Positions 4,012 to 55,128 of a DNA stretch of 64,000 nt are shown here, piece after piece (positions within the stretch are counted from its first letter, which is position 1; every line of letters starts with the position of its first letter). Both the position numbers and the translations under genes were made by a program. The notes beneath the pieces are model-generated. The model did no database searches. It had not been told where the DNA came from and was given only the letters and a program-made list of their open reading frames with translations. Origin of the DNA: a virus (Duplodnaviria > Heunggongvirae > Uroviricota > Caudoviricetes); IMG/VR virus record IMGVR_UViG_3300033075_001617, positions 13,560 to 77,559 of that record; one strand, 5' to 3'.

Positions 4012-4545
4012 CTAAGGAAAGGTTATGTAAGAGACTGGCACGTGGTCCGTGAGCCACACACCGTTGTCGGAGATGAAGAACTTGTGACCATCGTTGTGCA
4101 TGTGCTTTGCGGCCACCTCCAAGATGATGGCCTCACCCCGCCGCGTTCCGACCTTGGTGGCGGTCTCAACGTCCTTGGATAGATGCACGTGATGGCGGCT
4201 CATCTTTTGGAGACCCTCCTTCTGTATGGGGCCCAAGAACTTCTCGACCGTACCATGATAGAGGACCAGAGGCGGTACTTGCGACTTGAGGCCAAGGTCC
4301 ACATCGAGGGAGTGACCCTGTGCGGCTCTTATGCGCAGTCCGTCCTCGCTCAGGACATATCGTTTCTTGTCGTTCTCCGCCACGATGGATTCCAATTCTT
4401 CCCGCGTGACGACCTTGTTGTGCTTGGCCAGTTGCGACAGAAGCACGTCCACATCGACCCACCCCGCCTTGTCCAGTTTGATGCCTATGGTCTCAGGCTT
4501 ATGCCGCAGCACCAAGCTGAGGAATCTCGATACGTCTTTTCCCAT
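4012..4545 (-). CDS. kptA: RNA 2'-phosphotransferase Tpt1/KptA
   Basis: Near full-length match to the KptA/Tpt1 family: SRFLSLVLRHKPETIGIKLDKAGWVDVDVLL, RIRAAQGHS, LYHGT, HVHLS, GVWLT. 177 aa, typical size. Confidence 0.93.
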   Translation of the reverse strand: MGKDVSRFLSLVLRHKPETIGIKLDKAGWVDVDVLLSQLAKHNKVVTREELESIVAENDKKRYVLSEDGLRIRAAQGHSLDVDLGLKSQVPPLVLYHGTVEKFLGPIQKEGLQKMSRHHVHLSKDVETATKVGTRRGEAIILEVAAKHMHNDGHKFFISDNGVWLTDHVPVSYITFP

Positions 4546-4690
4546 CAGTTTGCGTATGCGGCGTACGTCGGCTTCTTTGGTCGTGTCGTTCTGGTAGGCC
4601 GTTCACTGAAGGTCACCAAAAGCACCAAGGCGAATACACCCACGGTGAGCGCTCCTATGGTAAGCACATCCAATATGTCATTTGTCTTTT

Positions 4691-6223
4691 TCATGCAAGC
4701 TTTGCTTTTTTCATTACCTCCAACTTCATCTTCTCGTAGCCATAAATATCCGACATCGGCTTGCGAATGTGAACATCGTTCGTATTCATTAGGATATCGC
4801 TCATCATGAACTCCGATGGATGCTCATACCCAGCGGCATAGGTCAAAGCAAGGATGTCCTTGCGGAGCGTCTTTATGAACCGCGCGATGCGTGGCGACTT
4901 ATCGTTGATATCGAAGCCGCGCTGAAGCCACCAGTTGTGGGTGGCGATACCAGCGGGGCATGTTCCCAATGCGCACTGCTTGGCCTGAATGCAGCCAGCC
5001 GACAACATGATCTCGCGGGCGATATTGATCATGTCGGCACCCATGGCGAAGGCGCGTACAGCCTTGGCCGGAAGTCCCAGTTTGGCGGATGCGATGAATA
5101 CCACCTTATCAGTAAGACCTTGCGTTTGGAACGCCTTGTAGACAGTCGTGAAAGCGTCGTTGAACGGCAGGCTCATGTGGTCGGAGAACGGAACGGGAGC
5201 GGCGCCTGTGCCACCTTCTCCACCATCGATGGTGATGAAGTCCGGACCCTTGCCCGTCTGTGCCATGCGCTCAGCCAACTCCAGCCAGAAGTCCTCTTTG
5301 CCGACCGCCGACTTGATGCCAACGGGCCTGCCCGTGTAGTCGGCGATCAATTCCACGAAACCGATGAGCTTGTCGACCGAGTCTATGCCATCGTGGTTGG
5401 CTGGGGAGATAACGTCATGACCTTTAGGGACGCCACGAATGGCGGATATCTCGTCGGTTACCTTGTCAGCGGGGAGCACGCCTCCCTTGCCAGCCTTGGC
5501 TCCCTGCGATAGCTTGATCTCGATGGCTTTGATCGATGGGTTTTTTGCGATCAGGTCCATCAGGATGGTCATGTCGAACTTGCGCTTGCCATCGGGCATC
5601 GTAATGCCGCAACCGAAGTAACCTGTTCCTACTTGGAAGACCACTTGATCCGCCCCCGCGTGATAGGGCGAGAATCCTCCCTCTCCCGTATTATGATATG
5701 CCCCGGCCTCGCGCGCCCCAAGGCCGTTCGCCATGGTAGCCTTCCATCCCAAGGCGCCATAGCTCATGGCGGAAATGTTGATGATGGATGTCGGCTGATA
5801 GGGATGCTTGCGGCGTGGACCTATTACCTTCCGGCATCCGACCTGATCCGTGTGTGGATCCTCCTTGGGAAATCCTGCGGGTAGGATGAAGAAATGGTCA
5901 TTCGATGTGAAATCGGCATCCGAGCCGAAGCCCATAAGGTTGTTCTGGTCCTTGGCTGAGGCATAGATGTAGGTACGCTCAACACGATTGAATGGTTGTC
6001 CATTCCTATCATTCTCAACGAAGTACTGCTGGATCTCGGGACGCACTTTTTCCGCGACAGGGCGAGCATTCCCTATCAGGGGGAAGTTGGTTTGGATGGT
6101 GTGCTTCTTGTTGAAGAAAAGGTCACGCACCAGCAAAACCAGCGCAGCAAGAACGACCGCAACGGTGATGCAGCCAATTGCGATGATGGCCATCATACCA
6201 ATATCGATGAACATTGTGCGCAT
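4691..6223 (-). CDS. glutamate-synthase domain-2-like FMN-dependent oxidoreductase
   Basis: GltB central-domain signatures GEGGFSPYH, ISPANHDGIDS, IDGGEGGTGAAP and GLPAKAV..AMGAD. N-terminal hydrophobic segment. 510 aa. Confidence 0.75.
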   Translation of the reverse strand: MRTMFIDIGMMAIIAIGCITVAVVLAALVLLVRDLFFNKKHTIQTNFPLIGNARPVAEKVRPEIQQYFVENDRNGQPFNRVERTYIYASAKDQNNLMGFGSDADFTSNDHFFILPAGFPKEDPHTDQVGCRKVIGPRRKHPYQPTSIINISAMSYGALGWKATMANGLGAREAGAYHNTGEGGFSPYHAGADQVVFQVGTGYFGCGITMPDGKRKFDMTILMDLIAKNPSIKAIEIKLSQGAKAGKGGVLPADKVTDEISAIRGVPKGHDVISPANHDGIDSVDKLIGFVELIADYTGRPVGIKSAVGKEDFWLELAERMAQTGKGPDFITIDGGEGGTGAAPVPFSDHMSLPFNDAFTTVYKAFQTQGLTDKVVFIASAKLGLPAKAVRAFAMGADMINIAREIMLSAGCIQAKQCALGTCPAGIATHNWWLQRGFDINDKSPRIARFIKTLRKDILALTYAAGYEHPSEFMMSDILMNTNDVHIRKPMSDIYGYEKMKLEVMKKAKLA

Positions 6224-6801: not shown

Positions 6802-7173
6802 CTAATTCTTATGTTGTACGCCCTCCATCTGGAGAGTTATCTCATTGCACAGGGCGCTGAGTTCAGCGGCCTTCTGGGGATCCAAGAGACTGTTGGCGTC
6901 CAATCTGCGGCGAGCGCCATTGGCATCCACGGCGAACAGATCGAATGCGCCTCCGTCCTTCTGCAACGTCACGGCGACAATGTCTCCCACGGGGTTGTTC
7001 ATGCGCATGGTCAGACCATCCGGGGTCGGAGTGCCATGCTGGCCCACGAGCCGCTGCAACCGCACGTAGTTCGCCTCAGGCGATGCGATGTCAAGGTCAT
7101 CGGCTTTGGTGACCAAGTTCTCATTGAACTCGGAGACGGTCTCCCTTATCAGGCGTTGAAGCAGGTTCCTCAT
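6802..7173 (-). CDS. hypothetical protein (in frame with upstream aaRS-like ORF across one TGA)
   Basis: 123-aa ORF whose ATG lies 5 codons after the TGA stop of the aaRS-like gene, in the same frame. Confidence 0.45.
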   Translation of the reverse strand: MRNLLQRLIRETVSEFNENLVTKADDLDIASPEANYVRLQRLVGQHGTPTPDGLTMRMNNPVGDIVAVTLQKDGGAFDLFAVDANGARRRLDANSLLDPQKAAELSALCNEITLQMEGVQHKN

Positions 7174-7188
7174 CGCAGATAAATAGTG

Positions 7189-8436
7189 TCAATCCAATGA
7201 CTCCGGATGGTCTACGCGCTCAACCGAATACAGCCCAAGCTTCTTCAGTCCAAGTTGCAGGTCCAACATCAACCCGGAGAACATCGCATGATTCTCGGGG
7301 TTACCGGAGATACGGTGTGTCCTGTAGATGGAATTGATGCGCGTGCAATGGTTGAAGAGCGCCATGAAGAGCCAATTCGGCTCACGTTGCCAGAGCGCCC
7401 TTGCATAGGCGTAGCTCAATTTCCATGAACGGAACTCATCGCCACACACGAGTTCTATCCCGGCGCTACAAAGACGAGCATTGGTGTAGCTGATGTAGAG
7501 GCCAAGGGAGATGTTGACATCCGACAGCGTCTTACCATCGATCTTCTTGGTGGTCTTTGGAGCGGCCTTCAGTATGTGGCCCGCGAGCACGTTGTAGGCG
7601 AGATGGTCGTCGCCGAACATCTCATTGAGCTTCTCCAATATCTCCTTGGCGTAGATCTCCTTCTTCTCTTCCTCAGTCTTCTCGGTACCATCCTCGTTCC
7701 GGCTGGACATCTTGAGCCCATTGAGGAGCACCAGCCCGAGTCCCACGTGGTCGGTGTGGGGGAACAACTTCTTGAGCAATCCGAAGTGTTGATTCTGCTC
7801 GCTCCCCGTGAGATAGAGCGTAGGCTTGTTGAGGTAATTGGCCAACGCCACGTCCTGATAGAAGTAGGTAGTGCTTCCGTCGCTCTTGAGCCCAACGATC
7901 TTCTGTCCTTCGATATTGAAGACCTTGGTGCCCACATAGTCCAACGGTGCTCCATTGCGGTCTACACCGTCATAGGTTCCGTTCTCCAGCAGTCCATCCT
8001 TGTTCAGAGACATCTCCGAGGCAAAGAACGTGTGATGCACCGGGTAGTCGAAGCGCAAGCAATAACCATAGAAGGACGCGAGAGCATCTGACTTGCTCAC
8101 TTGTCCCGTTATGGTGTCACCAAGTATGGCGATGGTCTCCCGCGAGACGCCCATCGATTGGTACGCCTTGGCGAGGACCAAGTTCGAGAGGTGGCCCAAA
8201 TGCAGGTGCTTGTTGAGGTTCGGGGAGAACCCATCTAGGTACTGGTAGGGCTCGGGGTGCCGAAAGAGCCCGCTGGTGACCTCCGGCATCACAAGGTTGG
8301 TGTACCGCCCTGCGGAGGCCGTCTGTATGCCATGATACGCGCACCACTGCTTGATCTCCTCTTGTGGCTCACCATACACGCACAGTCCCTCCCCGAACTC
8401 CGGGGGAGTAAGACCAATCTTCGGCTCTATCTTCAT
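7189..8436 (-). CDS. class I aminoacyl-tRNA synthetase-like protein (ArgRS-like catalytic domain)
   Basis: HIGH-type motif SPNLNKHLHLGHLSNLVLAKAY and KMSKS-type motif GLKMSSR. The context around HIGH resembles arginyl-tRNA synthetases. 415 aa, shorter than a full ArgRS. Confidence 0.65.
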   Translation of the reverse strand: MKIEPKIGLTPPEFGEGLCVYGEPQEEIKQWCAYHGIQTASAGRYTNLVMPEVTSGLFRHPEPYQYLDGFSPNLNKHLHLGHLSNLVLAKAYQSMGVSRETIAILGDTITGQVSKSDALASFYGYCLRFDYPVHHTFFASEMSLNKDGLLENGTYDGVDRNGAPLDYVGTKVFNIEGQKIVGLKSDGSTTYFYQDVALANYLNKPTLYLTGSEQNQHFGLLKKLFPHTDHVGLGLVLLNGLKMSSRNEDGTEKTEEEKKEIYAKEILEKLNEMFGDDHLAYNVLAGHILKAAPKTTKKIDGKTLSDVNISLGLYISYTNARLCSAGIELVCGDEFRSWKLSYAYARALWQREPNWLFMALFNHCTRINSIYRTHRISGNPENHAMFSGLMLDLQLGLKKLGLYSVERVDHPESLD

Positions 8437-8475
8437 GACCCTTATACGATCGAACGTCGATTATTGTTCCAAGGA

Positions 8476-14910: not shown

Positions 14911-14983
14911 TGACCCGTGAGAGATTCGAACTCTCAGCCTTACGCTTAGGACGCGTGCGCTCATCCACTTGAGCTTCCGGGCC
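14911..14983 (-). tRNA. tRNA-Arg (anticodon CCT)
   Basis: Manual cloverleaf: acceptor GGCCCGG/ACGGGTC, D-arm GCTC-AAGTGGAT-GAGC, anticodon arm CACGC-GTCCTAA-GCGTA, T-arm GAGAG-TTCGAAT-CTCTC, discriminator A. 73 nt. Confidence 0.75.
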
Positions 14984-15011: not shown

Positions 15012-15311
15012 TCAGTCCTTCTCGATCTTCTTCAGCTTGTCGTAGTACTCCGGGTCCTCCCAGATGTGGTCCGTGGCGATCTCTCGGGCCACAGCTTCAT
15101 CGTTGGTGTGTTCCATCTCCACGTCAGTGCCCTTCCTCAACTGGCGCTTGATCAGCCAGATGCTCACACCGTGATGGTCCACTAGGTCCTGTTGGCTCTT
15201 GCCCGATGCGAGCCCTCCGGGAATGCGCTCTTGGGTTCCCTCATGGATCCACGCCCGGATGATGCTTCGAAGTTCGTCACTCATGGCAATAAATAGCCAT
15301 AAGAGGTCCAT
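15012..15311 (-). CDS. hypothetical protein
   Basis: 99-aa ORF. Confidence 0.45.
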   Translation of the reverse strand: MDLLWLFIAMSDELRSIIRAWIHEGTQERIPGGLASGKSQQDLVDHHGVSIWLIKRQLRKGTDVEMEHTNDEAVAREIATDHIWEDPEYYDKLKKIEKD

Positions 15312-16476: not shown

Positions 16477-16565
16477 CTCCAAATTGTGATCCCGACAGGA
16501 TTCGAACCTGTAATGTTGTCTCATCAACAACGCACGCTTAGGAGGCGTGTGCAATATCCGCTCTG
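16477..16565 (-). tRNA. type-II (long variable arm) tRNA-like gene with anticodon CCT
   Basis: Acceptor GGTCCCG/CGGGATC, anticodon arm CACGC-CTCCTAA-GCGTG, 23-nt variable arm hairpin TGTTG-ATGAGA-CAACA, T-arm ACAGG-TTCGAAT-CCTGT, discriminator A. 89 nt. Confidence 0.55.
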
Positions 16566-16594
16566 CCACGGGACCGTTTGTTGGATCGTTATGT

Positions 16595-16939: not shown

Positions 16940-17021
16940 CCTGCAAAGATAAGGTTACTTAGCCGTTGCTATGCAACGTTTCCGATCATCGCCGACGTGG
17001 AGGCGAACCTTGTTGATGATC

Positions 17022-17094
17022 CACACGTGGAGGGATTTGAACCCCCAACCTTCGCTTTTGGAGAGCGCCACTCTACCAGTTGAGCTACACGTGT
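17022..17094 (-). tRNA. tRNA-Trp (anticodon CCA)
   Basis: Acceptor ACACGTG/CACGTGT perfect, D-arm GCTC-AACTGGTA-GAGT, anticodon arm GCGCT-CTCCAAA-AGCGA, T-arm GGGGG-TTCAAAT-CCCTC. 73 nt. Confidence 0.7.
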
Positions 17095-19412: not shown

Positions 19413-19489
19413 TGGTGATCCCGGCAAGGCTCGAACTTGCGACTGTCAGATTAGAAATCTGATACTCTGTCCAACTGAGTTACGGGACC
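19413..19489 (-). tRNA. tRNA-Arg (anticodon TCT), CCA encoded
   Basis: Acceptor GGTCCCG/CGGGATC, D-arm ACTC-AGTTGGACA-GAGT, anticodon arm TCAGA-TTTCTAA-TCTGA (perfect), T-arm GCAAG-TTCGAGC-CTTGC, followed by A-CCA. Confidence 0.8.
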
Positions 19490-19516: not shown

Positions 19517-20107
19517 TCAATGGACCTTCGGCCAAGAGGAGACCAGCACGAATTGCTGTCCGTAGTGCTCGTGGGCGGGATTGTCAGCGCGATAGACGGT
19601 GTATCCGGAGAACCCGATATCATCGAAGGCCTGCTTGGCGTCAATGGGAAGCGTGTAGTCCCAGAACGGGCCGCGCCCATGACGCTCATCTATCTTGTGC
19701 CTGCGGATGTAGTCGTCCACGAAGTTGGCCACTTCTTCGGCGTCGAATGTCATGTCGATGTCCATATCCTCCTTCATCGGCGTTTCGGCCGGAAGATACC
19801 AGAACTCCACCACCACGCAGTCCTTCCACATTCCCTTCTTGGTGTTCCTCGCCTTGACCTTGCGGTAGCCCTTGAACCCGATGTGGTCGAAGTACTCCGC
19901 TGCTGCCAAGGGCAGGTAGTAGTCCTGCGCCTTGCCGTAGCGGGAAGAACTGAAGAGCATGTTCTCCTTGATGTACTGGCTCACCAACTCGATGGTGGTA
20001 TCGCTCAGGACATCCGGGTCATCGTCCGATGTCATCTTTCCTTCATCTCCAACTGTGATGGTCTCCAATAAGCGACGCACCAGACTCCTCAGGTCCTTCA
20101 TGACCAT
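19517..20107 (-). CDS. hypothetical protein
   Basis: ORF trimmed to Met MVMKDLRSL... so that it starts 10 nt downstream of tRNA-Ser(TGA) instead of overlapping it. Confidence 0.5.
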   Translation of the reverse strand: MVMKDLRSLVRRLLETITVGDEGKMTSDDDPDVLSDTTIELVSQYIKENMLFSSSRYGKAQDYYLPLAAAEYFDHIGFKGYRKVKARNTKKGMWKDCVVVEFWYLPAETPMKEDMDIDMTFDAEEVANFVDDYIRRHKIDERHGRGPFWDYTLPIDAKQAFDDIGFSGYTVYRADNPAHEHYGQQFVLVSSWPKVH

Positions 20108-20116
20108 AAATAGCTG

Positions 20117-20645: not shown

Positions 20646-21164
20646 TTGAAGCGCGATGGGCCCCTAACTTGGGGCCCATCGCTATTTATGGACATGCTCA
20701 CCGAAGCCCAACGACAGCGCCTACAGAAACTCGCTGGCATCGACACCAACATCAACGATGCCTTCCGCGTGTGGTTTGGCAACAGCAAAGCCGTGACGGC
20801 GTCGGGAGAGCCTCAGGTGGTGCATCATGGGACCGCCACCAAGTTCCGCAAGTTCAATCCCAAGAAGGCCACCATGGGCGGCATCTTCTGGTTCACGTCC
20901 GACAAAGGAACCATTGAGCGCGGGGAATCCGGGGCCCAAGGCATCAAGCACATCATGGACTTGTACGTCTCGATCCAGAACCCCGCTGGCTGGGAGGAAT
21001 ACGAGAAGTTCGGGCTTGGCGAACTGAAAAACCGAGGCTACGATGGAGCCTTGCTGCCGAACAAGGATGGCAGCTTTGATGGCTTCGTCTTCGACCCCAA
21101 CCAACTCAAGAGCGTCGCCAATGATGGTTCGTGGGACCTCGACGACGACAACATCAGGTCCTGA
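20646..21164 (+). CDS. hypothetical protein (weak ADP-ribosyltransferase-like H/S/E pattern)
   Basis: Plus-strand ORF. VVHHGT, FWFTSDK and EEYEKF resemble the H-S-E pattern of ADP-ribosyltransferases. True start probably at MDMLTEAQ (20691). Confidence 0.4.
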   Translation: MKRDGPLTWGPSLFMDMLTEAQRQRLQKLAGIDTNINDAFRVWFGNSKAVTASGEPQVVHHGTATKFRKFNPKKATMGGIFWFTSDKGTIERGESGAQGIKHIMDLYVSIQNPAGWEEYEKFGLGELKNRGYDGALLPNKDGSFDGFVFDPNQLKSVANDGSWDLDDDNIRS

Positions 21165-54947: not shown

Positions 54948-55128
54948 GGGTCCAGATAAATAGAGTCAGAAACGACAAATCTGTCAGGGTTCATGTTGTC
55001 TCCTTAGGGGGTTGTTTGTGGTCGTGCAATGTATGATTTAATCACCCATGATAGTAGACAACAAAACTAAATATAAGTCATTTCAACAAAGTGTTGCAGC
55101 TTGCTAACAGCGTGGAATAGAGGGACTA

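Follow-up and report, generated by a model that had tools for sequence, protein, structure and literature searches.

The minus-strand gene at 7189-8436 of the DNA analysed here (64,000 nt of a Caudoviricetes genome, positions 13,560 to 77,559 of IMG/VR record IMGVR_UViG_3300033075_001617; hereafter the window) very probably encodes a complete, compact arginyl-tRNA synthetase (ArgRS) that belongs to a lineage nearly confined to large and huge phages, and the TGA at its end (7189-7191) is the natural stop of the gene. The original prediction had noted a 415-aa ORF with HLGH and KMSSR motifs and had read it as an ArgRS-like class I aminoacyl-tRNA synthetase (aaRS) on phage DNA. ORF and motifs are indeed present on the minus strand, and the ArgRS assignment is supported by a match to NCBIfam argS (E 4e-11), by profile comparison, and by the phage context of the neighbouring genes in the window. 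The same prediction took the gene to be truncated at an in-frame TGA and a 123-aa ORF to be its possible continuation. Since the TGA ends the gene normally and the next ORF is a small gene unrelated to it, nothing is truncated or recoded, which removes a false lead of recoding, readthrough, or a pseudogene at 6802-8436. Phage-encoded synthetases as such are already known; our literature search found no description of a compact phage ArgRS or its architecture. The features discussed below are collected in Table 1.

Table 1. Features of the synthetase locus and of the tRNA-Arg genes in the window.
Feature	Position	Strand	Remarks
Synthetase gene, predicted complete, 415 aa, ArgRS homologue	7189..8436	-	natural TGA included
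HIGH motif H79-L-G-H82	8191..8202	-	residues 79-82, read from sequence
KMSKS-type loop K242-M-S-S-R246	7699..7713	-	residues 242-246, read from sequence
Predicted C-terminal helical (Add2/DALR-type) anticodon-binding domain	7192..7701	-	~residues 246-415, inside the 415-aa ORF
TGA, ordinary stop of the synthetase gene	7189..7191	-	position corresponds to the family and canonical ArgRS C-terminus
Intergenic spacer, 15 nt	7174..7188	-	carries motif CTATTTAT at 7179-7186
Separate gene, 123-aa protein of no assigned function	6802..7173	-	own family, not part of the synthetase
tRNA-Arg(CCU), candidate substrate	14911..14983	-	Rfam tRNA 42.8 bits; anticodon loop GUCCUAA
tRNA-Arg(CCU), candidate substrate	16487..16575	-	ARAGORN and Rfam, 54.1 bits
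tRNA-Arg(UCU), candidate substrate	19416..19489	-	ARAGORN and Rfam, 65.2 bits

Relationship to canonical ArgRS

Profile-profile alignment with hhalign relates the compact family to canonical ArgRS with 99.94% probability (E 8e-37) and matches residues 28-413 to residues 62-577 of E. coli ArgRS, colinear to the last E. coli residue. In a fold search, ArgRS structures are the top matches of the model of the 415-aa protein. The protein scores 41.9 bits against TIGR00456, where the curated cut-off is 261.65, and although it matches Pfam tRNA-synt_1d (PF00750), one of the checks proposed with the original prediction, it does so at 14.5 bits against a cut-off of 23.3; we therefore regard it as a divergent relative and not as an equivalog. 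As a single sequence it is recognised by Pfam and PHROGs in the HIGH region only (E 0.018 and 0.0096), and because these databases are nearly silent, NCBIfam, family profiles, and structure were needed. Sequence searches of the PDB, with the single sequence and with the profile, retrieved only the Thermus thermophilus ArgRS, weakly.

The 415-aa protein is predicted to retain a set of features in common with E. coli ArgS (PDB 4OBY/5B63; TIGR00456), namely the class Ia Rossmann core with a HIGH motif and a KMSKS-type loop of the ArgRS kind, the six arginine contacts (D, N, H, Y, D, and Q), the aromatic-x-Asn motif by which A20, an identity base of the tRNA, is held, and a helical C-terminal anticodon-binding domain that extends to the normal ArgRS end (...LG(I/L)xxVE(R/K)(M/V)). 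The HIGH motif sits within the invariant block D68-G-F-S-P-N73-L-N-K-x-L-H-x-G-H82, which aligns to D118...N123...H129-V-G-H132 of E. coli, and H79-L-G-H82 is invariant in the family; the KMSKS-type loop pairs with E. coli F380-K-T-R383 and with MSGR of T. thermophilus. In E. coli ArgRS, arginine is bound by D118, N123, H132, Y313, D317, and Q341, with R324 as support (PMC3956977). The counterparts are D68, N73, H82, Y191, D195, and Q214, none of which varies among 17 homologues; R324, which supports D118 in E. coli, falls in a gap, and the Arg that follows HIGH (E. coli R134, invariant in seven canonical sequences) is replaced by an invariant Ser in the compact family. The A20 pocket of E. 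coli ArgRS is formed by F36, Q40, A78, F82, and N84 (PMC8975779). According to hhalign, A42, Y45, and N47 align with A78, F82, and N84, and the aromatic-x-Asn motif is conserved; the F36/Q40 half of the pocket has no aligned counterpart in the 415-aa protein.

The C-terminal end of the protein is that of the enzyme family. The aligned homologues (n = 17, 48-93% identity, 389-444 aa) all end within ~10 residues of the end of the 415-aa ORF, MAFFT pairs ...LGLYSVERV here with ...LGIETVERM in E. coli, and the predicted structure is helical from residue 255 onward. Because the hhalign alignment reaches the natural ArgRS C-terminus, the anticodon-binding domain is placed within the 415 aa. The suggested comparison with Pfam DALR_1 gave weak matches in seven of the 17 family members (best E 0.003) and none for the single 415-aa sequence. 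Judged from these alignments, the ORF is a full-length, naturally short synthetase with no domain missing at its C-terminal side.

The phage protein has 415 aa versus 577 aa in E. coli ArgS and is 15-20% identical to bacterial ArgRS. Ahead of the catalytic core it has ~60 residues, compared with 112 in E. coli. The MAFFT alignment against E. coli, which is rough at such divergence, gives ~52 of 112 aa for Add1, 43 of 58 for Ins1, 20 of 54 for Ins2, and 153 of 195 for Add2. The compact ArgRS thus appears to have lost about half of the N-terminal Add1 and much of Ins1 and Ins2, which accounts for its 415 aa instead of ~577, and the arginine pocket and anticodon domain would be kept in ~70% of the usual length. 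Unlike bacterial ArgRS, the phage clade carries an acidic insert of ~10 residues after KMSS.

Family extent and distribution among phages

More than 600 homologues of 360-450 aa, in ~100 clusters at 50% identity, end where the 415-aa ORF ends and make up a sizeable uncharacterised ArgRS lineage, with proteins of roughly 390-430 aa, that is almost confined to phages. An exhaustive HMM search yielded 103 clusters at E<=1e-30; those of full length again span 360-450 aa and are matched to the last profile position. The family is present in 28 IMG/VR loci. A pattern scan of the genomes of 185,579 species confirmed only seven loci, all in metagenome bins of mixed phyla, which we read as binned phage contigs or prophages.

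A DNA search of GenBank phages with the synthetase gene gave no match, and the protein-mode search found only two unannotated phages of 635 kb. These uncultured phages (LR745206.1 and LR756504.1, ~635 kb) encode members of the protein family that are 44-47% identical across 97% of the length, and their genomes are of the huge-phage type treated by Al-Shayeb et al. 2020 (PMC7162821), who proposed that phages charge their own tRNA variants; a compact ArgRS fits that proposal. On contigs of 617-712 kb, the synthetase gene lies beside other aaRS genes, PTH2, chaperones, and tRNA arrays. Unlike in the huge phages, the 415-aa protein is the only aaRS recognised among the scanned window genes, and the longest related contigs of the window's clade measure 82-84 kb and may be incomplete.

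tRNA-Arg genes and a proposed role in AGR decoding

Four tRNA genes with Arg anticodons had been expected in the window; three are confirmed (two CCU and one UCU), and the fourth is not. The tRNA-Arg(CCU) at 14911-14983 is not called by ARAGORN. In its counterpart at 16487-16575, the variable region includes an extra arm of 17 nt, and the acceptor stem is identical to that of the UCU tRNA. The identity set for Arg in bacteria comprises A20, C35, U36, and A73 (PMC9976931), and all four bases are present in each of the three tRNAs. AGG and AGA together account for 33% of the Arg codons in 18 window genes. The nearest tRNA-Arg in the window is 6.5 kb from the synthetase gene. In nine of 17 non-duplicate, tRNA-bearing loci of the family, which lack phylogenetic independence, the tRNA gene closest to the synthetase gene is a tRNA-Arg, versus 12% expected (p ~6e-5), and in the other eight it is another tRNA. 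The tie drawn by the original prediction between the ArgRS and the phage Arg tRNAs is reasonable and finds support in these gene neighbourhoods of other phages. The phage also encodes a tRNA-Trp(CCA) (ARAGORN and Rfam), and tRNA-like mini-helices lie at 28860-29690.

From its sequence and context, we infer that the enzyme would charge tRNA-Arg with arginine during infection, an activity that we call putative for the whole compact family. Its most plausible substrates are the AGG/AGA-reading tRNAs (CCU and UCU) of the phage itself, and their charging would allow AGR-rich phage messages to be translated independently of host supply. More tentatively, and with doubt outweighing confidence, the compact enzyme could be a dedicated partner of the AGG/AGA tRNA-Arg, including the odd extra-arm CCU tRNA, in a semi-autonomous and possibly orthogonal charging pair. 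Such a dedicated pair, with its reduced D-loop-binding domain, would let AGR decoding continue when host tRNA-Arg or ArgRS is limiting or attacked, and no natural ArgRS scaffold would be smaller. Should it be active, the family would reveal which parts of ArgRS are dispensable, could provide small synthetase/tRNA pairs for engineering, and would offer a concrete test case for the question of why a phage combines just one synthetase with tRNAs for rare codons.

The TGA stop and the downstream gene

The geometry of the junction is as originally described: the synthetase ORF stops at the TGA, 15 nt (five codons) follow, and the 123-aa ORF begins with an ATG in the same frame, so that reading through would give a product of 544 aa, a size that we recomputed from the sequence. 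The spacer carries the motif CTATTTAT, 5 nt upstream of this ATG. The motif occurs nine times in the window (0.75 expected), is found 4-8 nt upstream of several gene starts there, and is kept in the equivalent spacer of relatives despite differing spacer length and frame. Scans for consensus promoters and terminators around the junction gave nothing useful. The 123-aa protein belongs to a family of free-standing proteins of 113-124 aa and shares 57% identity with the protein encoded out of frame next to the synthetase gene in one relative (L003). It has no similarity to ArgRS in hhalign (0.2% probability) and no match in Pfam and PHROG; an NCBIfam lectin match at E 0.02 was dismissed. Its predicted fold is helix-sheet-helix, not all-helical as in the anticodon-binding domain, and the model has no match in the PDB (Foldseek, best E 0.07). 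Divergence from the relative L001 is sharply unlike for the two genes (dS 0.35 versus 2 substitutions). More distant members of the synthetase family lack the 123-aa gene as a neighbour, and it is confined to the window's phage clade, so the synthetase does not require its product as a partner. What the original prediction had named as evidence against its own reading, a downstream ORF unrelated to ArgRS and an upstream ORF that is naturally short, is what we found: the 123-aa ORF is a gene in its own right, preceded by a conserved motif of its own, and it shares the frame by coincidence.

Coincidence, one of the options first offered for the shared frame, is indeed the answer, and the same-frame arrangement is not more than chance. 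Of the 17 pairs of minus-strand neighbours separated by 1-60 nt, nine share a frame, among them the DNA ligase/ArgRS pair immediately upstream. More ORFs of the window end in TGA than in any other stop (53 of 91), and in 17 of the 91 at least 60 open codons lie past the stop. Reassignment of TGA or TAG was tested by comparing the ORF sets under alternative codes. With the standard code (code 11), 92% of the window is coding and long conserved genes (RNR, ClpB-like, helicase, and others) are intact; reading TGA as sense merges genes, an expected effect for the commonest stop, and hardly increases coverage (0.924 to 0.941), and TGA reassignment is therefore rejected. The suggested search for a UCA-anticodon tRNA or for TGA as a sense codon found neither in the window. 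In gut phages, suppressor-type tRNA and HDV-like ribozyme elements go along with recoding (PMC10879173). The window resembles phages with suppressor-tRNA TAG/TGA reassignment in having a CUA-anticodon tRNA (29690-29758) and an HDV-like ribozyme match directly 3' of a tRNA, but, unlike them, it has no evident recoding, the stop here being TGA, with no UCA tRNA and with relatives that use TAA.

Alternative explanations

Programmed readthrough or recoding of the TGA would produce a 544-aa synthetase whose 123-aa part supplies a missing anticodon-binding domain. This reading draws on the shared frame and on the mere five sense codons between the ORFs, an arrangement found with the same stop in two 93% identical relatives from other samples (L001 and L002), as well as on the phage tRNA-Trp(CCA) and on the nucleotide after the stop: TGA followed by C is a weak, leaky terminator context in E. 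coli, so that trace readthrough may occur. As a designed feature, readthrough is very unlikely and is refuted by the out-of-frame relatives. Among relatives compared at the junction with 56-66% identity, L003-5 and L017-18 have a TAA stop, a 22- or 28-nt spacer, and the next gene in a different frame, and L019 has an additional 127-aa gene between the synthetase gene and the next one. Moreover, the anticodon-binding domain is already placed within the 415 aa, which end at the canonical ArgRS C-terminus, the 123-aa protein has a non-helical core, same-frame neighbours are the norm here, and no family member among the matches listed in the exhaustive search has such an extension. The same-frame juxtaposition is also the one point in favour of a formerly longer gene that a recent nonsense mutation, or an error of sequencing or assembly, has cut short; nonsense mutation and sequencing error had been raised by the original prediction, and this whole reading is extremely improbable. 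Seven contigs are recorded with the identical protein and stop, the three listed coming from three different samples, and the 93% identical relatives have the same stop. Family members agree in where the protein ends, and a dN/dS of 0.14 indicates purifying selection on the synthetase gene. Independent assemblies and the family-wide conservation of the C-terminus thus refute mutation and error alike.

A further alternative, which we consider unlikely, leaves the stop untouched: the protein could be an ArgRS-derived paralogue outside general translation, either an arginine/ATP binder with another acceptor, for instance the tRNA-like mini-helices at 28860-29690 or a substrate other than tRNA, or else a decoy or regulator that binds tRNA. 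Against such a paralogue, the six arginine contacts, HIGH, the KMSKS-type loop, the aromatic-x-Asn motif, and, by prediction, the full anticodon-binding domain are all kept. A compact ArgRS that functions in translation is the preferred reading, and in many phages the gene is positionally tied to ordinary tRNA-Arg and to other translation genes.

A complete, compact ArgRS-fold protein

The 415-aa ArgRS-like protein is a complete ArgRS-fold protein that ends at its natural stop. The original prediction had described it as apparently truncated at an in-frame TGA, with possible readthrough into a 123-aa ORF; the elements of that arrangement (the 415-aa ORF, HLGH, KMSSR, the TGA, and the same-frame 123-aa ORF) are all present in the ORF list and reverse-strand sequence, and the hypothetical readthrough product would have 544 aa. 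Truncation and readthrough themselves do not hold, since the family, a compact phage ArgRS lineage, ends at the same C-terminus and the small gene is unrelated and out of frame in relatives at 56-66% identity. More than 600 homologues came back from a protein search, almost all of them 389-444 aa long with query coverage of 97-100%, and when 17 sequences (48-93% identity) are aligned, each C-terminus lies within ~10 residues of ...LGLFSIDKV. When 1.8 billion cluster representatives were searched exhaustively with an HMM, 103 clusters reached E<=1e-30; their full-length members have 360-450 aa and are matched to the final profile position, and none of those listed has a C-terminal extension of ~125 aa.

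The protein is also colinear with the 577-aa E. coli ArgRS (from NC_000913.3) to the last residues (...LGIETVERM-stop vs ...LGLYSVERV plus seven more residues in the 415-aa protein), so that the upstream ORF aligns as a full-length short synthetase, contrary to what truncation would imply. Compared profile to profile with seven ArgRS sequences of canonical length, the phage family scores a probability of 99.94% (E 8e-37), and residues 28-413 of the 415-aa protein pair with E. coli 62-577. Because this alignment reaches E. coli 577 and thus covers the anticodon-binding domain Add2 (383-577; PMC3956977), that domain lies inside the 415 aa.

Features of the synthetase locus and of tRNA-related elements in the window
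Feature	Position	Strand	Source
Synthetase ORF, 415 aa	7189-8436	-	ORF list, reverse-strand sequence
HLGH (HIGH motif), residues 79-82	8191-8202	-	read from sequence
KMSSR, residues 242-246	7699-7713	-	read from sequence
TGA stop of synthetase ORF	7189-7191	-	reverse-strand sequence
123-aa ORF, same frame, ATG 15 bases past TGA	6802-7173	-	ORF list
CTATTTAT	203-210	+
CTATTTAT, synthetase/small gene spacer	7179-7186	-
CTATTTAT	15289-15296	-
CTATTTAT	20106-20113	-
CTATTTAT	20682-20689	+
CTATTTAT	54956-54963	-
tRNA-Arg(CCU)	14911-14983	-
tRNA-Arg(CCU) with extra arm	16487-16575	-
tRNA-Arg(UCU)	19416-19489	-
Tpt1/KptA gene	4012-4545	-
Conserved downstream block	4012-6223	-
RF02682 match	16950-17021	-
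tRNA-Trp(CCA)	17022-17094	-
Mini-helix array	28860-29690	-
tRNA with variable-region insert	28934-29112	-
Ile(GAU)-like tRNA	29176-29319	-
CUA-anticodon tRNA	29690-29758	-

An independent gene downstream of a coincidental in-frame stop

The small gene is independent of the synthetase gene and unrelated to it. Its 123-aa product has no Pfam or PHROG match and scores a probability of 0.2% against ArgRS by hhalign, which leaves the proposed continuation of the synthetase without similarity to ArgRS. An AlphaFold model (pLDDT 72.8) shows a helix, a four-to-five-stranded sheet, and a helix, differs from the all-helical DALR fold, and has no PDB match. The six database homologues are all free-standing (113-124 aa). 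In a 66% relative (L003-5), the synthetase gene stops at TAA, many stops follow in the continuation of its frame, and a 124-aa homologue (57% identical) lies in a different frame after a 22-nt spacer; a 56% relative (L017-18) likewise has TAA, a 28-nt spacer, and a different frame. A 127-aa gene separates the two genes in family locus L019, and the small gene is not present beside more distant family members. Between the window and a 93% relative, synthetase gene dS is 0.35 and the small gene has only two synonymous changes, an unequal divergence that marks the junction as the boundary between two separate gene histories.

The same-frame arrangement is no more than chance and the in-frame TGA a coincidence. 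Nine of the 17 adjacent minus-strand gene pairs in the window (spacers 1-60 nt) share a frame, including the DNA ligase/synthetase pair directly upstream; at least 60 open codons follow the stop in 17 of 91 ORFs, and TGA is the commonest stop (53/91). Under the standard code, coding coverage of the window is 92% and long conserved genes are unbroken. ARAGORN and Rfam found no UCA-anticodon tRNA in the window, the decoder that had been suggested for recoding. Sequencing or assembly error and fresh mutation are ruled out: the identical protein and stop are recorded on seven contigs (the three for which a place is given come from three different samples), the TGA is common to the 93% relatives, which come from other samples, and synthetase gene dN/dS is 0.14.

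The spacer between the two genes contains CTATTTAT, which occurs nine times in the window vs 0.75 expected (12-fold over-represented), usually 4-8 nt ahead of an ATG at several start codons, and is kept in the corresponding spacers of relatives. This enrichment, position, and conservation suggest a separate start signal for the small gene. A phage-specific promoter or start signal is a possible reading of the motif, and mRNAs from such starts are possibly leaderless or near-leaderless.

Relative to the 93% relative L001, synthetase gene dS is about ten times the divergence of flanking genes, an excess suggesting that recombination has exchanged alleles here. L001 (1-2326; window 7189-8475) has an extra 262-aa gene between DNA ligase and synthetase, with no counterpart in the window.

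Predicted specificity for arginine and tRNA-Arg

By alignment, the predicted arginine pocket is shown to be conserved. The E. coli guanidinium contacts D118, Y313, and D317 and main-chain contacts N123, H132, and Q341 (PMC3956977) correspond to D68, Y191, D195, N73, H82, and Q214, none of which varies within the family. Profile-profile alignment places Y45 and N47 opposite E. coli F82, which stacks on tRNA base A20, and N84, which hydrogen-bonds to it (PMC8975779), the Tyr/Phe-Asn/Gln motif of ArgRS (PMC3956977); the F36/Q40 half of the A20 pocket has no counterpart in the alignment with E. coli ArgRS. Of the Pfam HMMs that the original prediction proposed for comparison, tRNA-synt_1d gives a match confined to the surroundings of HIGH, and DALR_1 gives weak matches for 7/17 family members. 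The NCBIfam argS match (E 4e-11) is far under its cut-off.

We predict that the 415-aa protein charges tRNA-Arg with arginine, its probable substrates being the AGR-reading species of the phage; such a role would match the proposal for huge phages that phage synthetases charge phage tRNA variants (PMC7162821). The main rival, an ArgRS paralogue with a changed acceptor, is unlikely, and keeps some weight because Add1 is reduced and two arginines are lost: E. coli R324, which supports D118, is opposite a gap, and R134, following HIGH, is an invariant Ser. In a MAFFT alignment, rough at such divergence, Add1 has ~52 aligned residues (~60 before the core) against 112 in E. coli, Ins1 43 against 58, Ins2 20 against 54, and Add2 ~153 against 195. 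Phage-encoded synthetases are already known, and the family is already in public data, unannotated or labelled 'arginyl-tRNA synthetase'; none of the literature searched describes the compact architecture.

The window is a large-phage segment encoding ribonucleotide reductase, primase-helicase, UvsX-like recombinase, helicase, ClpB-like and FtsH-like proteins, ATP-dependent DNA ligase, Tpt1/KptA, and many tRNAs. Four Arg-anticodon tRNAs had been claimed; ARAGORN and Rfam confirmed three (2x CCU, 1x UCU) and not the fourth. All three carry A20, C35, U36, and A73, the bacterial tRNA-Arg identity set (PMC9976931). Across 18 window genes, AGG accounts for 24% of Arg codons and AGA for 9%. One tRNA-Arg(CCU) has a class II-like 17-nt stem-loop in its variable region, and its acceptor stem and A73 are identical to those of tRNA-Arg(UCU).

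Family distribution and neighbourhood

The family occurs in 28 IMG/VR viral contigs (11-597 kb), two 635-kb uncultured phages in GenBank, and metagenomic contigs of 617-712 kb, where its neighbours are tRNA arrays, other aaRS genes, PTH2, DnaJ/GrpE, and homing endonucleases. Only seven loci were confirmed when genomes of 185,579 species were scanned with a pattern, and each of them is in a metagenome bin; the phyla of these bins are unrelated. The tRNA nearest the synthetase gene is tRNA-Arg in 9 of 17 non-duplicate tRNA-bearing loci, in which Arg makes up 12% of all tRNAs (binomial p ~6e-5, the loci not being fully independent), and at three loci (L011, L048, L050) runs of Arg tRNAs stop 16-129 nt from the gene.

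Further genes on the family-bearing contigs of 617 and 712 kb (L015 6397-6771; L013 7174-9736 and 12487-12888) are those for a tmRNA, PTH2, and two more aaRS-like proteins of compact size (375 aa, class IIa; 392 aa, class IIb). These phage synthetases may share reduced size as a general trait. A block conserved downstream of the synthetase gene (window 4012-6223; L003 7848-9834) holds a pair of small ORFs, a 510-aa protein containing an FMN-type Glu_synthase domain (Pfam E 1e-71), and then the Tpt1/KptA RNA 2'-phosphotransferase (Pfam E 7e-52). In L003, an RNA ligase lies a few genes beyond it.

Other tRNA-related elements

Two neighbouring tRNAs have inserts and intact halves: an Ile(GAU)-like tRNA (52 bits) with 72 nt after position 37, the canonical tRNA intron site, and another (37 bits) with ~108 nt in the variable region. 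Group I introns were rejected, both inserts being too short. These short inserts, Tpt1/KptA, and the RNA ligase of relatives make protein-catalysed tRNA splicing in phage a lead.

At least six tRNA-like mini-helices, called by neither ARAGORN nor Rfam, are arrayed in the same region. All of them combine an acceptor-like stem and a T-arm (GGTTCGATCC and variants) with a GNRA-capped hairpin that replaces the D and anticodon arms; they group into repeat families and overlap mechanically listed ORFs, which may be spurious. The CUA-anticodon (amber suppressor) tRNA, labelled 'Pyl' by ARAGORN and just sub-threshold in Rfam (27.7 bits), has an odd D arm. No sign of TAG recoding appears in the window; recoded genes, if there are any, would therefore lie in other parts of the genome.

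The tRNA-Trp(CCA) is followed without a gap by an HDV-like ribozyme match (RF02682; 34.7 bits, short of the 44-bit gathering score; E 0.0026 for a search of 16 kb), the same arrangement as that of 'theta' ribozymes, which sit 3' of phage tRNAs (PMC10879173).
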